Shown here one piece after another: positions 3,837 to 15,566 of a stretch of DNA of 64,000 nt. The first letter of the stretch is position 1; the number at the start of each line of letters is the position of its first letter. The DNA is from Longimicrobiales bacterium. Its GTDB lineage: Bacteria > Gemmatimonadota > Gemmatimonadetes > Longimicrobiales > Gaopeijiaceae. The stretch lies in assembly GCA_965219445.1 (NCBI GenBank), contig CBDCNQ010000002.1:384001-448000 (forward strand). The letters are read 5' to 3'. The notes beneath the pieces are model-generated. The model was not told the DNA's origin. It saw only the letters and a list, made by a program, of their open reading frames with translations, and did not search any database. The translations under genes and the position numbers were made by a program.

Positions 3837-4067
3837 ATGGCAAAGACCAAGCTCACGCTGTCAGTTGACAAGGCTCTGATTGTGCGAGCTAAACGGTTCT
3901 CGCGGAGGAACGACACCACAGTCTCGGAGTTGGTCTCAAGGTTCTTGGCGTCGCTGGACGATGAGCGAGGTCGGGCGGCGCCTATCACATCGCGTCTACG
4001 TGGAGTCCTCCCTGCTGCCGTCAAACGCGAGGAACATCGGCGGCATCTTGAAGTGAAGCACGGGTGA
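3837..4067 (+). CDS. DUF6364-like RHH antitoxin
   Basis: MAKTKLTLSVDKALIVRAK...SELV; overlaps PIN toxin gene. Confidence 0.75.
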   Translation: MAKTKLTLSVDKALIVRAKRFSRRNDTTVSELVSRFLASLDDERGRAAPITSRLRGVLPAAVKREEHRRHLEVKHG

Positions 4068-4480
4068 AACGGATTCTTCTCGACATCAACGTGGTTCTCG
4101 ACATCTTAGCCGACCGGAAACCCTTCGCTGAGGAGGCTGCCGCGCTCTTCGGAGTGATCGAAACCGGAGGCGTGCAAGGCTTCGTCGCGGCCCATACGGT
4201 GACCACGCTTCACTATCTCCTGGCGAAGCACCTGGGGAAGGCGAGGACACGACGGGTGCTGATGGACCTGCTTCAGTTGCTCCGAGTGGTGGAGGTAGAC
4301 GAGGATCGTTTGCGGCATGCACTGGGGCTGAACTGGACGGACTTCGAGGACGCGGTTCAGGCAGCGTGCGCGGAGAAGGCTGAGGCAGACTACCTCGTGA
4401 CCCGGGACAAGGCCGGGTTCAAGAAGTCTTCAGTACGACCAGTAACGCCAAGCGAGTTGCTTGCTTTGATCCAGGAGTAG
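4064..4480 (+). CDS. PIN-domain (VapC-like) toxin
   Basis: ILLDINVVLD, DFEDAVQ, YLVTRD..GF acidic PIN motifs. Confidence 0.9.
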   Translation: MKRILLDINVVLDILADRKPFAEEAAALFGVIETGGVQGFVAAHTVTTLHYLLAKHLGKARTRRVLMDLLQLLRVVEVDEDRLRHALGLNWTDFEDAVQAACAEKAEADYLVTRDKAGFKKSSVRPVTPSELLALIQE

Positions 4481-4493
4481 ATGGATCGGGGCT

Positions 4494-4593
4494 ACCTAAC
4501 GGATCTGCATTTCTGCTGCGCGTCAATCTGCACTCCGCGCACATTGTGCGCGACTCTAACGCCGACCGCGACTGCAGCAAATGCTTGTTAGAA
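4494..4593 (-). other. intact attC site (100 bp)
   Basis: Minus strand: R'' TTCTAAC, 5-nt spacer AAGCA, L'' TTTGCTGC with one extra base relative to L' GCAGAAA, then R' GTTAGGT. Confidence 0.9.
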
Positions 4594-4657
4594 CGCGCTG
4601 CGGCGGCACTCATCAGCCTCCGTAGTGAGTCAGACGCAGGGGGCTGGCCAGGCGCGA

Positions 4658-5790: not shown

Positions 5791-5885
5791 TTCTAACGTC
5801 TCTGCGATTCTGCTGCGCGGCTAATGTGGTGACCGCACGCGAAGCGCGCGAGCCTGATGTCTACCGCGACAGTAGCAATCGCTTG
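5791..5885 (-). other. attC site 3, split by IS1111; R'' displaced to 9049-9055
   Basis: ttctaac...gcaatcgcttg, IS, then ttagag. Confidence 0.85.
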
Positions 5886-6015
5886 ATACTCATGCAGGCC
5901 CCCTCCTGGACCTCTCAGAGAGAGGACGGAATGATCAGAGCGCGACGCTCGATCCATCCAACCCAGGAGGGGAACCGGAACCTGTCAACGCCAGTGAGAC
6001 ACTCTTGGAAATCAA

Positions 6016-7023
6016 TTAGAGAGCAATCTCCTGTGTCGTGAGGGATGGGGTGGGAGGATTGATCCAGACGGCCTCCGGGAGTGGTTTAGGCTTCGGCTCA
6101 CCGGAGACGAAGCGCTCGGGATGAGCGGCCCATGCCTCACGGAGCACGGCCTTCCTGCAGGCGATGATCCGATCGGCGTGACCGAAGTGGACCTGTTCGG
6201 GGGTCAGCATCGAGATGCCGCCATGGCGGTGCTCGGCATTATACCAACGGAAGAACGAGCGACAGAAGGTCTTGGCTTGCCCCTGATCCCCGAACCGGCC
6301 GGGAAACGAGGGATGGTACTTCAAGGTCTTGAACTGAGCCTCGGAGAACGGATTGTCATCCGAGACCTGGGGTCGGCCCAACGAGCGGGTCACGCCGAGA
6401 TCGGCGAGTAGTTGAGCCGTGCATTGGCTCGTCATCGGAGCCCCTCGATCGGAATGCAGGGTCAGGAGGTGGGGCTGGACGCCATGCTTCAAGCAACTCT
6501 GCTGGATCAGCCGGCTGGCCAGGGCAGAGTTCTCCCGATCCGCCACCATCCATCCCACGACGTAGCGGCTGAAGATGTCCAGGATCACGTAGAGGTAGAA
6601 GTAACTCCACTTCTTCGGCCCCAGCAGCCGGGTGATATCCCAGGACCAGACCTGGTTCGGGCCCCTCGCCATCAACTCGGGCTTCTGGTATTTGGGATGA
6701 CTCCGCTGCGCTCGACGCTCCTGAACCGGCACCTGGGAAGCCAGAACGCGATACATCGTACGCTCGCTGCACAGGTAGACGTCCTCGTCGAGCAGCGTCG
6801 CCACCACCTCGGCTGGGGACCGGTCCACGAACCGCTCCGAACACAGGGTGTCGAAAATCTTGTCCCGCTCCCTCTCACTTAAGGCCCGGGCGGGGGTCGG
6901 GCGGGGCTGCTGATGCCCGGTCGATGCACTCCGACGACGGTAGAACGTGGCTCGCGGCACCCTGAGCGCATCGCACGCGGGCTTCACCCCTACGTGCTTG
7001 GCTAGCTCCTGGGTCGCCTTCAT
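6016..7023 (-). CDS. IS3-family transposase OrfB (DDE)
   Basis: WSWDIT, DIFSRYVVGW, LHSDRG, SDDNPFSEAQFKTLKY. Confidence 0.9.
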   Translation of the reverse strand: MKATQELAKHVGVKPACDALRVPRATFYRRRSASTGHQQPRPTPARALSERERDKIFDTLCSERFVDRSPAEVVATLLDEDVYLCSERTMYRVLASQVPVQERRAQRSHPKYQKPELMARGPNQVWSWDITRLLGPKKWSYFYLYVILDIFSRYVVGWMVADRENSALASRLIQQSCLKHGVQPHLLTLHSDRGAPMTSQCTAQLLADLGVTRSLGRPQVSDDNPFSEAQFKTLKYHPSFPGRFGDQGQAKTFCRSFFRWYNAEHRHGGISMLTPEQVHFGHADRIIACRKAVLREAWAAHPERFVSGEPKPKPLPEAVWINPPTPSLTTQEIAL

Positions 7024-7469
7024 GAGTTCGTCCCGTCCTCGAGGCTCAATCCCAGCAGCCCTGCAACTTTTCCCTGGACGTCGATGATCAAGTGCGCCTT
7101 CTGGAGCTCCTTCTCGAGGCGAGTGTTCTCGCGCTCCAGCTTGCGCACCTTCTCCTCCAGCGGATTGCGCTCGCGCTTACGGCCTCGTTTCTTCGACAGC
7201 GCTTTCAGGGACCCGCTATGCGCCGCCTTGCGCCATGTCGTCAGGTGCGACGAGTACAAGCCCTCCCGCCGTAGGAGTCGGCCAACCTCTCCGGGCTCCG
7301 TGCACCGGTCCGCTTCTTCGACGATCCGCAGCTTGTACGACGGAGCGAACCGCCGGCGCAGCGGCCTATCTACCACCTCCGAGTCCGCAGGAGCTGCCGC
7401 GCTTCGCTTACCGTCCCAGGTTGGTGGGGCTATTCCATTCTCTTTCATTCTCTCTCGGTGTCTCAGCAT
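7020..7469 (-). CDS. IS3-family transposase OrfA (HTH plus leucine zipper)
   Basis: RRRF...YKLRIVEEAD, LLRREGLYSSHLTTWR; slippery G GGA AAA at 7074-7068 with the -1 frame open into orfB. Confidence 0.88.
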   Translation of the reverse strand: MLRHRERMKENGIAPPTWDGKRSAAAPADSEVVDRPLRRRFAPSYKLRIVEEADRCTEPGEVGRLLRREGLYSSHLTTWRKAAHSGSLKALSKKRGRKRERNPLEEKVRKLERENTRLEKELQKAHLIIDVQGKVAGLLGLSLEDGTNS

Positions 7470-7546
7470 CCTCGGTTTCTCTGCCTTCGCCCTACTCTAA
7501 TTCCTTAGCTGCTCCGTGTCTCACGTAAGTTGGCAGAGAGGGAACC

Positions 7547-8593
7547 ATGCGCTTCTACACCGGCCAGCATCGATACTACTGTGGCATCGACCTTCACGCT
7601 CGCACGCTCTACCTCTGTATCCTGGACTGCCAGGGCAAGATACGACTACACAAGAGGCTACGCTGTGAGCGCGAGGCACTGCTTCGCGCCCTCGAGCCGT
7701 ACCGTTCAGATCTCGTCGTGGGCAGCGAGTGCATCTTCTGCTGGTACTGGCTCGCCGATCTCTGTGCTCGCGAGCAGATCCCCTTCGTGCTCGGCCATGC
7801 GCTCTACATGAAGGCGATCCATGGGGCCAAGGCGAAGAACGACCACATCGACTCCCACAAGACGGCGGTGCTGCTGCGCGGGGGTGCCTTTCCGGTGGCC
7901 TACGTCTATCCCCCGCAGATGCGAGCCACGCGCGATGTGCTCCGGCGCCGACTCTACTTCGTACGCAAGCGCGGCGAACTCCTCGCCCACGTCCGTAACA
8001 CCTTTCATCAGTACAACCTGCCTCGGCCCTCCGGTCAGCTCCTCTATAAGAAGAACCGCGAGGGACTGGCCCAGGCATTCGACGATCGCATGATCCAGAG
8101 GACCATCGAGGCGGATCTCGCACTCGCGGATCGCTTCGACCCCGTGATCCGAGAACTCGAGCGCACGATCGAAGAAGAAGCCCGCGTCCACGACCACGAC
8201 ACGCTGCAGCGGCTGCGAACCATCCCCGGCATTGGCCGCATCCTGGCCCTCACGCTGCTCTATGAGATCCACGACATCGCTCGCTTCAGCACGGTGCAGC
8301 GCTTCAGCTCCTACTGTCGACTCGCCAAGCCCGAGCACCGCAGTGCAGGCAAGCGAGTCGGCAGCGGAGGAGCCAAGATCGGCAACGCACACCTCAAGTG
8401 GGCGTTCAGTGAGGCGGCCGTCCTCTTCCTTCGCGACAACGTCCGCGGCCAGGCCCATCTCAAGAGGCTCGCGCGCCGCCACGGCAAGGGCAAGGCGCTC
8501 AGCATCCTTGCGGCTCGCATCGGACGCGCCACCTACTTCATGCTCAAGAACCGGGAGGCATTCGACACCGAACGCTTCTATACACGCACCTGA
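7547..8593 (+). CDS. IS110-family DEDD recombinase/transposase, intact (348 aa)
   Basis: GIDLH, KNDHIDS, LRTIPGIG, FSSYCRL, HRSAGK..GSGGAKIGNAHLKWAF. Confidence 0.93.
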   Translation: MRFYTGQHRYYCGIDLHARTLYLCILDCQGKIRLHKRLRCEREALLRALEPYRSDLVVGSECIFCWYWLADLCAREQIPFVLGHALYMKAIHGAKAKNDHIDSHKTAVLLRGGAFPVAYVYPPQMRATRDVLRRRLYFVRKRGELLAHVRNTFHQYNLPRPSGQLLYKKNREGLAQAFDDRMIQRTIEADLALADRFDPVIRELERTIEEEARVHDHDTLQRLRTIPGIGRILALTLLYEIHDIARFSTVQRFSSYCRLAKPEHRSAGKRVGSGGAKIGNAHLKWAFSEAAVLFLRDNVRGQAHLKRLARRHGKGKALSILAARIGRATYFMLKNREAFDTERFYTRT

Positions 8594-9025
8594 CGGGGAG
8601 GGGAGGTTGTGAGCCTTGATTTCTAACTCGAGCGGGCACCGGATGCCTGACAGCCGCCTCGCTTGATTGGACGCCTCCTCCCGCTCCCCACACATCGAGT
8701 CGGTCTCACTCAGGACTCTGCCCCTCACCCGAGCCCGGAGCTAACTGGCCCGCCGCCTCACGGCCCGAGCCTGCTCTCCTTGAATGGAGTCGGACGGCAC
8801 GAGGGCACAGATGAATTTCTAGGTCGTAGCGGCCAGCAGGCTCCTGCTCCGCCGCCTTCGAGCTCGCCTCGAGGGAGATCCGGCGGTTAAACCTCGATAA
8901 GTGTTTGGTGCAGAGCTCACTGCGCTCGCACCTGCTAACGGAAACCAAGTCAGAGGACTCAGCGACCGATGCTCACTCCGCTTACGGCGCCGCTCCGCAG
9001 CGCGGAGGAGGGAACTTGCGCGCTC
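8594..9025 (+). ncRNA. putative bridge/seek RNA with three guide loops
   Basis: Stem-closed loops holding ttctaac/tcgcttg (attC target), gctaac/ctccttg (variant target), atgaatttc/gataagtg (donor junction); boundaries approximate. Confidence 0.7.
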
Positions 9026-9088
9026 TTGACTCCGGGGGCCTGATAAGTGTTAGAGCGCAGCCGACCGAGCCCGAAGTACCCTACGCCA

Positions 9089-9117
9089 TTGACGGATATA
9101 CGCCAATGACGTATCAT
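9089..9117 (+). promoter_or_regulatory. sigma70 promoter and tandem operator of the higBA-like cassette
   Basis: TTGACG-N17-TATCAT overlapping two near-palindromes tacgccattgacgga / tacgccaatgacgta. Confidence 0.65.
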
Positions 9118-9122
9118 AGCTC

Positions 9123-9440
9123 ATGGTCATCAAGGAGACCTCCATTTTCACCAAGCAGGTGAACAAGCTATTGGACGCGGAGTCCTATCGATTCTTGCAG
9201 CTTCGCCTCGTCGCGGATCCTGAGGCCGGAGATCTCATGCGTGGGACCGGTGGCCTGCGGAAGATTCGGTGGCAGGGGTCTGGTCGCGGAAAACGAGGAG
9301 GTGTCAGGGTGATCTATTATTGGGCCGCGAATCATGACGTCGTTCTGATGTTGCTGATGTACGGAAAGAATGAGCGAGATGACCTCTCTGCCGAACAGAG
9401 CAAGGTGTTGGTCGCTCTTGTGAAGGAGGAGTTCAAATGA
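9123..9440 (+). CDS. higB: RelE/HigB2-family toxin
   Basis: ETSIF..., PEAGDLMRGTGGLRKIRW...GKRGGVRVIYY...YGKNERDDL. Confidence 0.88.
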   Translation: MVIKETSIFTKQVNKLLDAESYRFLQLRLVADPEAGDLMRGTGGLRKIRWQGSGRGKRGGVRVIYYWAANHDVVLMLLMYGKNERDDLSAEQSKVLVALVKEEFK

Positions 9441-9724
9441 GGGACGAGCTTTTCAGCGAACTCGAAGAAAGTCTGAAGGAAGGGGGAGCCATCCTCCGAG
9501 GCGAGCTGGATCCATCCCGCCAGGTAGCCTTTGAGGCTCCAAACGTAGCTGAGATTCGGGAGGAATACGGATTATCTCAGACCAAGTTTGCGGCTCTGCT
9601 TGGGATCAGCGTCCGCACGCTACAGAATTGGGAGCAGGGTCGCCGCCACCCCCAGGGACCTGCGAGAATCTTGTTGAGGGTGGCAGCGAAGCACCCTCGG
9701 GCGGTCCTCGACTCGGTAAAATGA
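9437..9724 (+). CDS. higA: HigA2-like Xre HTH antitoxin
   Basis: IREEYGLSQTKFAALLGISVRTLQNWEQGRRHPQGPARILL. Confidence 0.88.
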   Translation: MRDELFSELEESLKEGGAILRGELDPSRQVAFEAPNVAEIREEYGLSQTKFAALLGISVRTLQNWEQGRRHPQGPARILLRVAAKHPRAVLDSVK

Positions 9725-9850: not shown

Positions 9851-10724
9851 ATACTCATGCAGGCCCCCTCCTGGACCTCTCAGAGAGAGGACGGAATGAT
9901 CAGAGCGCGACGCTCGATCCATCCAACCCAGGAGGGGAACCATGCGCTTCTACACCGGCCAGCATCGATACTACTGTGGCATCGACCTTCACGCTCGCAC
10001 GCTCTACCTCTGTATCCTGGACTGCCAGGGCAAGATACGACTACACAAGAGGCTACGCTGTGAGCGCGAGGCACTGCTTCGCGCCCTCGAGCCGTACCGT
10101 TCAGATCTCGTCGTGGGCAGCGAGTGCATCTTCTGCTGGTACTGGCTCGCCGATCTCTGTGCTCGCGAGCAGATCCCCTTCGTGCTCGGCCATGCGCTCT
10201 ACATGAAGGCGATCCATGGGGCCAAGGCGAAGAACGACCACATCGACTCCCACAAGACGGCGGTGCTGCTGCGCGGGGGTGCCTTTCCGGTGGCCTACGT
10301 CTATCCCCCGCAGATGCGAGCCACGCGCGATGTGCTCCGGCGCCGACTCTACTTCGTACGCAAGCGCGGCGAACTCCTCGCCCACGTCCGTAACACCTTT
10401 CATCAGTACAACCTGCCTCGGCCCTCCGGTCAGCTCCTCTATAAGAAGAACCGCGAGGGACTGGCCCAGGCATTCGACGATCGCATGATCCAGAGGACCA
10501 TCGAGGCGGATCTCGCACTCGCGGATCGCTTCGACCCCGTGATCCGAGAACTCGAGCGCACGATCGAAGAAGAAGCCCGCGTCCACGACCACGACACGCT
10601 GCAGCGGCTGCGAACCATCCCCGGCATTGGCCGCATCCTGGCCCTCACGCTGCTCTATGAGATCCACGACATCGCTCGCTTCAGCACGGTGCAGCGCTTC
10701 AGCTCCTACTGTCGACTCGCCAAG
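9851..10724 (+). mobile_element. IS1111 copy 4, truncated (transposase 9942-10724; aagccc remnant at 12325-12330)
   Basis: Identical to copy 3 up to cgccaag, then IS3 element B. Confidence 0.88.
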
Positions 10725-10764
10725 CGGAACCTGTCAACAGCGATGAGACACGGGGAGTCATAGA

Positions 10765-14377: not shown

Positions 14378-14399
14378 ATCTAACTTTCAACTGTATCGC
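14378..14399 (-). other. candidate attI site
   Basis: Minus strand GCGATAC-AGTTGAAA-GTTAGAT: a GTTRRRY core with no attC arm, between the intI stop and the first cassette gene. Confidence 0.55.
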
Positions 14400-14570: not shown

Positions 14571-15566
14571 CTAGTCCCGGTCCTCCGGTCGATCAAGTGG
14601 GCTGCGCATGCCCAGTCCGGCATCGGTGATGGCTTGCACGTAGATCATCGTCGTGCGGATGTCTTTGTGACCCATGAGCCTCTGCACCGAACGGGCGTCG
14701 TATCCGGCCCGCAGCATCTGAGTAGCGAAGGATCTGCGAAGGGTGTGACAGGTGACGGGCTTGGTAATGCCGGATGCTCGGGCCGCGTCCTTCATCCGTC
14801 TTTGCATGGCTGTCGGGTTGAGGTGGTACCGACCCTTCCTCCTAGTAGCGGGATCCCGCGACCATCGGCTCGCGGGGAATAGGAACTGCCACGACAGGTC
14901 GTAACCCGCTTGTGGATCCTTGCGATCCAGTGCACCCGGCAGTTGAGCCCAACCGCCTCCTCGGCGCCTGTCCTCCCGGTGCAGTTCCTTTACAAGAGAC
15001 ACCTGGCGGCGTAGTGCCGAACCGAGCCGCTCGGGCAGCATGACCCACCGGTCCTTGGCACCCTTCCCGTCCCGTATGGCGATTTGCAGCAGGTCGAAGT
15101 CGATGTCCTTAATCCGCAGTTGATGACACTCCGTCAGGCGGGCGCCCGTGCCATACATCAGCGAACCCAGTAGTCGATATTTGCCGGACAGATGGCCGAG
15201 CACGAGCCGCACCTGCCCGTGAGATAACACGGTCGGTATTCGCTGCGGCTCTCGGGCCCGAGGCATACCTTCAAGATCGTCGCGGCCCAGGACCTCCCTG
15301 AAGAAAAACGACAGCGCCGACGCGGCCTGATTGCGACTCTTTGGCGCCAACCTCCGCTCCTCCGTGAGAACGCTCAAGAACTGCTCCACATGCCGTCTGG
15401 TGAGATCCTCCACCGGAACACCGGGATGGGCGTCCGTGAATCGCCGGAGCCATCGCGCGTACACTTCTATCGTCCTATTCCGGTAACCCCTCTGTCTCAG
15501 GAGGCGGCGAGTGGTCGCGAGCGCTCGCTCGACATCGGGTCCCGGGCGCATGCTGAACGATCCCAC
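14571..15566 (-). CDS. intI: integron integrase
   Basis: Tyrosine recombinase motifs (YGTGARL.E, GKGAKDR, HTLR, MGH.D..TTMIY) plus the IntI-specific insert LPGALDRK.P.A..D.SWQFLFP. Confidence 0.95.
   Translation of the reverse strand: MGSFSMRPGPDVERALATTRRLLRQRGYRNRTIEVYARWLRRFTDAHPGVPVEDLTRRHVEQFLSVLTEERRLAPKSRNQAASALSFFFREVLGRDDLEGMPRAREPQRIPTVLSHGQVRLVLGHLSGKYRLLGSLMYGTGARLTECHQLRIKDIDFDLLQIAIRDGKGAKDRWVMLPERLGSALRRQVSLVKELHREDRRRGGGWAQLPGALDRKDPQAGYDLSWQFLFPASRWSRDPATRRKGRYHLNPTAMQRRMKDAARASGITKPVTCHTLRRSFATQMLRAGYDARSVQRLMGHKDIRTTMIYVQAITDAGLGMRSPLDRPEDRD

Follow-up and report, generated by a model that had tools for sequence, protein, structure and literature searches.

Bridge recombinases are a young class of genome-editing enzymes whose RNA is described as having one target loop and one donor loop and whose weak reaction is excision. 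As described in the reports on IS621 and ISCro4 (Durrant 2024, PMC11208160; Hiraizumi 2026, PMC13626964), a DEDD recombinase with a Tnp serine is directed by a bridge RNA in which left and right guides surround a two-base core, the target loop precedes the donor loop, and the handshake bases match the partner DNA after exchange. These features are shared by the element analyzed here, in which the handshake of loop 1 (AT) corresponds to the donor and that of loop 3 (TT) to the target; however, its RNA contains two target-type loops instead of one, lies 3' of the open reading frame (ORF), and has a multiloop as its donor loop. The recombinase resembled the IS621 protein weakly (E 2.8e-06) and in the C-terminal part only.

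The IS1111-attC elements ISKpn4, ISPst6, and ISPa25 (PMC11187229; PMC13604230) also have a 3' non-coding region, sub-terminal repeats, and a junction promoter, and they likewise insert at the R'' end of attC in the orientation opposite to the cassettes. They cut at AA*CG, however, which on our reading of Table 1 of PMC13604230 lies 7 bases further into the site, whereas the present element uses a TG core within R''. One pair of target matches was reported for the IS1111-attC elements (PMC11187229; PMC13604230). In the published matrix (PMC11187229/PMC13604230), ISGsu5, ISShfr7, and ISShwo5 show about 17% identity to ISPst6 and ISKpn4; thus, attC targeting probably arose separately, and the clade of the present element would represent a second, probably independent route to it. 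Compared by eye, our recombinase shares its N-terminal motifs with the published ISGsu4 protein and with the cluster representative, and the ISGsu4/ISGsu5/ISShfr7/ISShwo5 group is probably the named home of the clade. These likely named relatives reach about 15–25% to IS1111 members in the published matrix, which suggests that the clade is a deep side branch. Our literature search on ISGsu4, ISGsu5, ISShfr7, and ISShwo5 found nothing on their RNA or targets.

TIGR-Tas arrays (Faure 2025, PMC12045711) also consist of repeated units with two guides each, which a Nop-type domain reads, and that report notes that bridge RNA resembles two fused tigRNAs, treating it as a single two-stem unit. Unlike TIGR-Tas, the RNA described here consists of three unequal units with different jobs and forms no regular array, and its protein is a transposon recombinase, which scored 33 bits against the Tas model NF052498, far below the cut-off of 100. 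A set of 86 bridge-RNA covariance models includes structures deviating from IS621 (10.64898/2026.10.21.760802). No description of two target loops in one bridge RNA was found in the mostly non-subscription literature searched, including passages of PMC11208160 and its preprint, PMC12045711, 10.64898/2026.10.21.760802, 10.1101/2025.05.14.653916, and PMC12288879; the three-loop bridge RNA is apparently undescribed so far.

The element and its attC target

The locus was analyzed within a window of 64,000 nucleotides from a Longimicrobiales bacterium, which is the whole stretch of DNA under study, and its features are given in table 1. The recombinase scored 189.7 bits against the NF033542 profile (cut-off 140) and combines a DEDD RuvC domain, with the residues D15, E61, D99, and D102 taken from its sequence, with a Transposase_20 domain whose catalytic serine, S266, aligned with the serine motif of IS621 (alignment to 8wt6). 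A TG core is present at both junctions without further target duplication, as in IS110 elements, and the donor half GATAAGTG terminates in this core at the right end. Two features are of the IS1111 type: the sub-terminal inverted repeats CAGGCCCCC and GGGGGCCTG, 9 bp long, and a non-coding region of 456 nt to the right of the ORF, compared with about 91 nt to its left. The assignment in the initial annotation to an IS110/IS1111-type element, with a 3' guide RNA of two target-type loops and a donor loop, was retained, and loop 2 is a conserved, diverged unit of the target type.

Table 1.— Positions of the element, its guide RNA, and its target within the window
Feature	Position	Strand	Details
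Invaded attC	5792..5885	-	R' GTTAGA, arms, spacer adjoining R''; repeat family D8, six-copy alignment
Target left half with TG core, tcgctTG	5879..5885	+	Equals loop-1 right guide
IS110-family element	5886-9049	+	Both ends located in window
Element left end	5886..5974	+	Sub-terminal inverted repeat CAGGCCCCC at 5895-5903
IS3-family element between left end and recombinase start	5975..7542	-	NF033516 above cut-off; ends approximate
IS110-family DEDD recombinase, 348 aa	7547..8593	+	PF01548 and PF02371; NF033542
Unit 1, main target loop	8594..8689	+	Left guide 8619-8627 (TTCTAAC 8621-8627), right guide TCGCTTG 8659-8665, handshake AT 8666-8667
Unit 2, second target-type loop	8719..8807	+	Left guide 8738-8745 (GCTAAC 8740-8745), right guide CTCCTTG 8776-8782
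Unit 2 handshake AA and closing stem	8783-8784; 8719-8726 with 8801-8807	+	
Unit 3, donor multiloop	8810..8935	+	Left guide ATGAATTTC 8811-8819, right guide GATAAGTG 8896-8903, 3' hairpin
Unit 3 handshake TT	8904-8905	+	
Element right end	9026..9049	+	-35 box TTGACT 9026-9031; inverted repeat GGGGGCCTG 9034-9042
Target right half ttaga, remainder of attC R''	9050..9054	+	Sequence; empty sites
Putative attI-like core GTTAGAT 3' of integrase stop	14378..14384	-	
Integron integrase, transcribed toward cassette array	14571..15566	-	TIGR02249 345.7 bits, cut-off 265

The left end of the element carries GGAGGGG, a Shine-Dalgarno-like motif, near the 3' end of its segment, and it is separated from the ORF by an IS3-family insertion that is also evident from repeats D9 and D12. 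Because this insertion splits the left end from the start codon, the copy in the window is probably not self-expressed; 3 further copies in the genome retain both ends and a full ORF, and the donor loop of all three has three extra bases. Joining the right and left ends would yield TTGACT-17 nt-GATACT, a promoter-like junction, and in 125 of the 133 distinct right ends collected, TTGAC lies 24–25 nt from the terminus, a motif that was partly built into the end calling. No circle junction was seen in the assembled contigs of four sequencing runs, which is no proof either way. The array in the window holds four IS110 copies (202-1413, 2141-2262, 5886-9049, and 9851-10725) in successive attC sites, each of them broken or shortened by an IS3-type element.

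The integrase points at its cassette array, and we take this integron to be of the inverted type. On the minus strand the repeat order is R'', spacer, L'', then L' and R', which places the element inside R'' in the orientation opposite to the cassettes; insertion at the attC R' crossover was also considered and was dropped, since the array turned out to be on the minus strand. In this genome, all eight left junctions end in gcaatcgcttg, the loop-1 type, and four of the five right junctions start with ttaga, the other one with ttatg. Empty sites were found in 11 contigs of run X4, which read TCGCTTG-TTAGAC, and the loop-1 site occurred 25 times, in same-strand series, in four of five related genomes. 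Six annotated plasmid loci have, to the right of the element, a gene on the opposite strand that terminates close to the element's end, as expected for insertion at R''. An automated attC fold test did not discriminate (26/48 sites vs 38/96 controls), and the attC identity of the sites in homologues therefore rests on inspection and on the flanking genes ending there (six loci).

Read by eye, base 4 of L'' in the attC copies (4490-4595 and related ones) appears to be a top-strand G, and the bulge would then be a bottom-strand C and not the textbook G. A toxin-antitoxin-like pair, RelE-like (below cut-off) plus HTH, occupies 9123-9724 as a cassette opposite to the array direction, and a promoter-like site lies at 9089-9117; 1411-2033 and 3837-4480 are presumably also toxin-antitoxin-like pairs in cassettes opposite to the array direction.

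Three units of guide RNA and their conservation

The six guide motifs and both closing stems reported in the initial annotation were all found exactly in place (table 1). Its readings of loops 1 and 3 also held: loop 1 encodes both halves of the invaded site, and loop 3 matches the right end of the element exactly and the left end at 7 of 9 positions. The wwTGG tails to which it had drawn attention are present, but they are composed of the handshake dinucleotides plus a scaffold motif. Instead of the canonical layout of one target and one donor loop, three units were observed both in this element and in its clade. Folding of the guide region, suggested at the outset as a check, did no better than shuffled sequences (z -0.66); the minimum-energy fold closes the loop-1 guides by pairing and does not leave them open, and Rfam gave no match for the guide region. 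Contigs of runs X1 and X10 match the loop-2 segment of the window only (8716-8826) and then diverge, which suggests that a further member of the clade, nearly identical in loop 2, occurs in these samples.

Homologous loci were collected by protein from species genomes (80 loci) and by DNA from the same order (30 loci). A donor-loop pattern yielded 3 further loci from viral contigs, in which a protein search gave no related loci, and the 80 metagenome loci used of 121 matches; this search is biased toward the clade but not toward loops 1 or 2. All six guide anchors were present in 86 of the 106 distinct non-coding ends with a callable stop, at 51–100% protein identity. Inspection of the other 20 by eye revealed one element with a single target loop (L010) and one without loop 1 (L013); L176 was mis-called and does have loop 1, and the rest have variant motifs. 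The same three-unit layout was observed in Vibrio, Alteromonas, Pseudoalteromonas, Catenovulum, Salinivibrio, and Ca. Manganitrophus plasmids, and it persists down to 47% protein identity. The closing stems of unit 2 were compared across 68 of 79 sequences; bases paired in 93.7% of the 679 cells and changed on both sides in 38 cases. Neither value was reached in any of 500 shuffles and slid controls paired in 37–62%, in a test that is inflated by the relatedness of the sequences. In this comparison of homologues, which had been proposed in the initial annotation, the stems of loop 2 covary and the loop is conserved.

In a tree of 66 recombinases, with a distant and weak root, L010 is nested inside the three-loop elements, and its single loop therefore looks like a loss. 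In L010 itself (2500-2940) one target loop is seen, whereas in L013 it is loop 1 that was lost instead. We concluded that the three-loop RNA is real and ancient within its clade, and we hold with high confidence the architecture of two target-type loops and one donor loop together with the roles of loops 1 and 3.

The loop that chooses the insertion site

The relation between guides and insertion sites was determined at 88 sites, 55 of them with both flanks; the position tests covered 87, one site being omitted because its guide is truncated. Ends with an unrecognized target-guide anchor, exact duplicates, the inner duplicated end of L002, and five left-end calls judged wrong on inspection (L010, L030, L037, L043, and L077) were excluded. 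Over the 55 sites, loop 1 matched the target at 5.87 of 9 variable bases compared with 4.06 after permutation, and loop 2 at 4.16 compared with 3.66; the better-fitting loop was loop 1 in 42 sites and loop 2 in 8, with ties in 5. The two loops disagree at 298 positions; there the target agreed with loop 1 in 177 cases, with loop 2 in 48, and with neither in 73. Once conditioned on positions that do not follow loop 1, the matches of loop 2 were as expected by chance (48 vs 50.4; 87 sites), and the best of the two loops gave no gain over a shuffled loop 2 (P 0.41; the sites are phylogenetically related, and every P value overstates). The residual of loop 2 was also nil in the pooled 111 sites (66 vs 65.7 expected), and simulation, in which a loop-2 share of at least 10% gave P <=0.05, disfavors shares of 10–15% or more. 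At position +4, discordant targets agreed with loop 1 in 12 of 15 cases and with loop 2 in 1. Many natural sites match loop 1 at just 3–5 of 9 variable bases.

Loop 1 covaries with both target flanks, as is characteristic of IS110 guides that address both strands, and it is, judged by this covariation, the attC guide that sets the insertion site at attC R'' plus spacer. For loop 3, three positions of the left guide covaried with the left end (37 vs 16.1, 38 vs 24.8, and 41 vs 34.8, of 54), and guides to the joined donor ends were found as in other IS110 elements, although the match of the right guide was partly built into the end calling; loop 3 is, by the same token, the donor guide that pairs with the joined element ends. 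In the left donor guide (8811-8819 and its homologues), the base facing position 2 of the left end is always a T, which matches in none of 54, and this conserved mismatch adjoins the core.

The initial annotation had inferred a dual specificity, in which loop 2 would be a co-equal guide for a second class of attC. Because the pooled residual is nil and the sites track loop 1, such a co-equal second specificity is not supported. The predicted second class was present in none of the eight left junctions of this genome and in none of the nine distinct left junctions of four close relatives, where no ctcctTGttagc-type flank was seen and an intermediate, GCCCTTG, was found. Moreover, ctcctTGttagc, which had been predicted as an attC, is in this genome the right end of an IS256 element, present in 3 copies, none of them an attC, and it recurs in 14 further IS256-type ends (10 + 4) of two relatives, in intact copies. 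A smaller part of the claim may stand. In 24 held-out sites (2 loci unparsed), loop 2 matched 18 positions against 13.8 expected (z 1.8), and at the discordant positions of the 11 marine gammaproteobacterial sites among them, loop 1 was followed in 9, loop 2 in 11, and neither in 17. On the Pseudoalteromonas THAF3 plasmid, the left flanks of both copies fit loop 2 (L306 7/7, L253 6/7) better than loop 1 (4/7). A minor or lineage-bound role of loop 2 in targeting is thus possible.

Over 13 bases, loop 2 matches the co-resident multi-copy IS256 right end (G000 C1:211187, C5:478073, and C5:1044338; L281-L296), for which 0.02 matches were expected under an order-4 model, the match representing one independent sequence in 3 copies. 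Targeting of IS256 ends by loop 2 was rejected, since no copy seen was interrupted and the loop-2 sequence differs by a base in close relatives; the match is left as a curiosity.

The role of loop 2

Loop 2 differs from loop 1 in several respects. The six core positions are as well kept as those of loop 1 (93–100% conserved), but the distal bases are U-rich and unlike real targets in the logos. Its left guide is 8 nt long in 72 of 89 units, compared with 9 nt in 61 of 89 for loop 1, and its right guide ranges from 7 to 9 nt. Whereas the handshake of loop 1 is AT, the donor bases after the core, in 94 of 96 units, that of loop 2 varies (AA 41, AC 19, AG 16, AT 14, and other 6, n = 96), with A as the first base in about 94%; the TT handshake of loop 3 equals the target in 78 of 79 right flanks, TT having served as the search anchor. 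The spacing from loop 2 to the donor guide is 32 nt in 62 of 84 elements, whereas loop 1 precedes a variable linker, and the two loops are identical in none of 84. Judged from these alignments, the conserved second loop is of the target type but retains nothing beyond the invariant attC core (TTG|TTAG), and it does not follow the distal target bases. Two further partners for it were rejected: pairing with the opposite end of the same attC gave 2.58 vs 2.35 of 9 (P 0.14, 26 sites), and a constant partner site within the element or beside it did not emerge, the hits lying at different positions from one element to the next.

We propose a division of labor, which as a whole we put at slightly under an even chance: a bridge RNA of the ISGsu4/ISShfr7 group with a stringent loop 1, an exit loop 2, and a donor loop 3. 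By comparison, the element sits opposite to the cassettes around a TG/CA core. The excised circle would form the junction promoter, giving a read-through transcript that contains the guide RNA, and loop 1, with its full AT handshake, would drive insertion. Loop 2 has a shorter guide, its U-rich right arm would tolerate wobble, its handshake is only half complete, and its distance to the donor loop is fixed at 32 nt; it would serve together with loop 3 for excision or copy-out from whichever attC was entered, and it might occasionally make insertions itself. It would need only the invariant attC core and would keep the donor side by one base, which would suit the exit step. As many sites match loop 1 poorly (3–5 of 9), a tolerant exit guide would be useful, and the full AT handshake on loop 1 would hinder leaving.

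In IS621, according to PMC13626964, handshake pairing after strand exchange sets the direction of the reaction and insertion-optimal guides hinder excision; the same source states that the donor loop alone is able to excise, so that a dedicated exit loop would be unnecessary in principle. Other observations also count against an exit role: the first handshake base of loop 2, A, matches the donor as in insertion and not the excision-favoring target T, the THAF3 sites fit loop 2 better, and L010 copes with one target loop. An exit role for loop 2, acting at low stringency together with loop 3 on any attC, is a plausible but somewhat doubtful proposal. A broader reading, in which the clade uses both target loops, the stringent one to insert and the relaxed, donor-coupled one to control exit, with a second specificity in some lineages, comes close to an even call while falling a little short of it.

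Loop 2 might alternatively be a second insertion guide that hedges over attC variants and is rare or lineage-limited. Its core is always R''-like, its +3/+4 dinucleotides (AG, AT, CG, GG, and TG) also occur in real targets, and it never equals loop 1 (0/84); L306, L253, and the right flank of L065 fit it, and both the held-out excess (z 1.8) and the unconditioned covariation (4.16 vs 3.66 permuted) point the same way. That covariation, however, leaves nothing once conditioned on loop 1, a share of at least 10–15% is disfavored, the discordant +4 targets side with loop 1, the predicted class is missing from the left junctions of the genome (0/8) and its close relatives (0/9), and the exact predicted site is an IS256 end that is intact in 3 + 10 + 4 copies; we regard a second insertion guide as unlikely.

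Transfer might also proceed directly with two RNAs, loop 1 being cleaved off as a seek RNA for the new site while loops 2 and 3 hold the old junctions, without a free circle. Unit 1 is self-closing and is followed by the variable linker, whereas the distance between units 2 and 3 is rigid, and precedents are found in the reports on CazIS110-1, in which a target-loop-only RNA cooperates with the bridge RNA (bioRxiv 10.1101/2025.10.25.684509), and on IS1111 members, in which short target-only seekRNAs predominate (PMC11187229). The CazIS110-1 RNAs, however, are described in that preprint as a single target loop in two forms and not as two different loops (10.1101/2025.10.25.684509), and the conserved junction promoter at the right end points to a circle, which leaves direct transfer quite improbable. 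If the guide bases of loop 2 were minor and the loop were a protein-binding scaffold or decoy that holds the recombinase dimer, for RNA folding, donor-loop spacing, or damping, its distal guide bases could ignore targets and its right guide could vary from 7 to 9 nt, as observed; but TAAC and TTG of loop 2 are nearly invariant over 47–100% protein identity and loop 3 has other bases in the same slots, which argues for pairing between loop 2 and attC DNA and makes a scaffold very unlikely.

The divided labor of a stringent insertion loop and a relaxed exit loop, if true, would be a natural way for one RNA to handle both the directionality of recombination and multiplexing, and would bring a bridge RNA slightly closer to a guide array. 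Members of the clade occur in many phyla and have retained a third loop with a different tuning, which bears on exit from imperfectly matched sites and also on one RNA carrying several specificities. Members are found on plasmids of cultured marine bacteria (Alteromonas, Pseudoalteromonas, and Catenovulum). Because insertion breaks R'', the elements may freeze integron cassettes in place.

Variation was also observed at the donor side of individual elements. The right end of L002 is tandemly duplicated, from the donor-guide DNA to the true end, both of which share GATAAGTG, and this duplication may have resulted from recombination of guide-coding DNA with the element end; the right-end duplication in L252 is a short terminal repeat. 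The donor loops of L027, L041, L130, L143, and L150 contain inserts of 175–216 nt with a conserved core (CTCCGACGAGCT...GGCCCATTCTC). Finally, L272 and L279 (G855:C34) are two diverged copies in tandem at neighboring sites, with compact loop-1 units and 46–48% protein identity.
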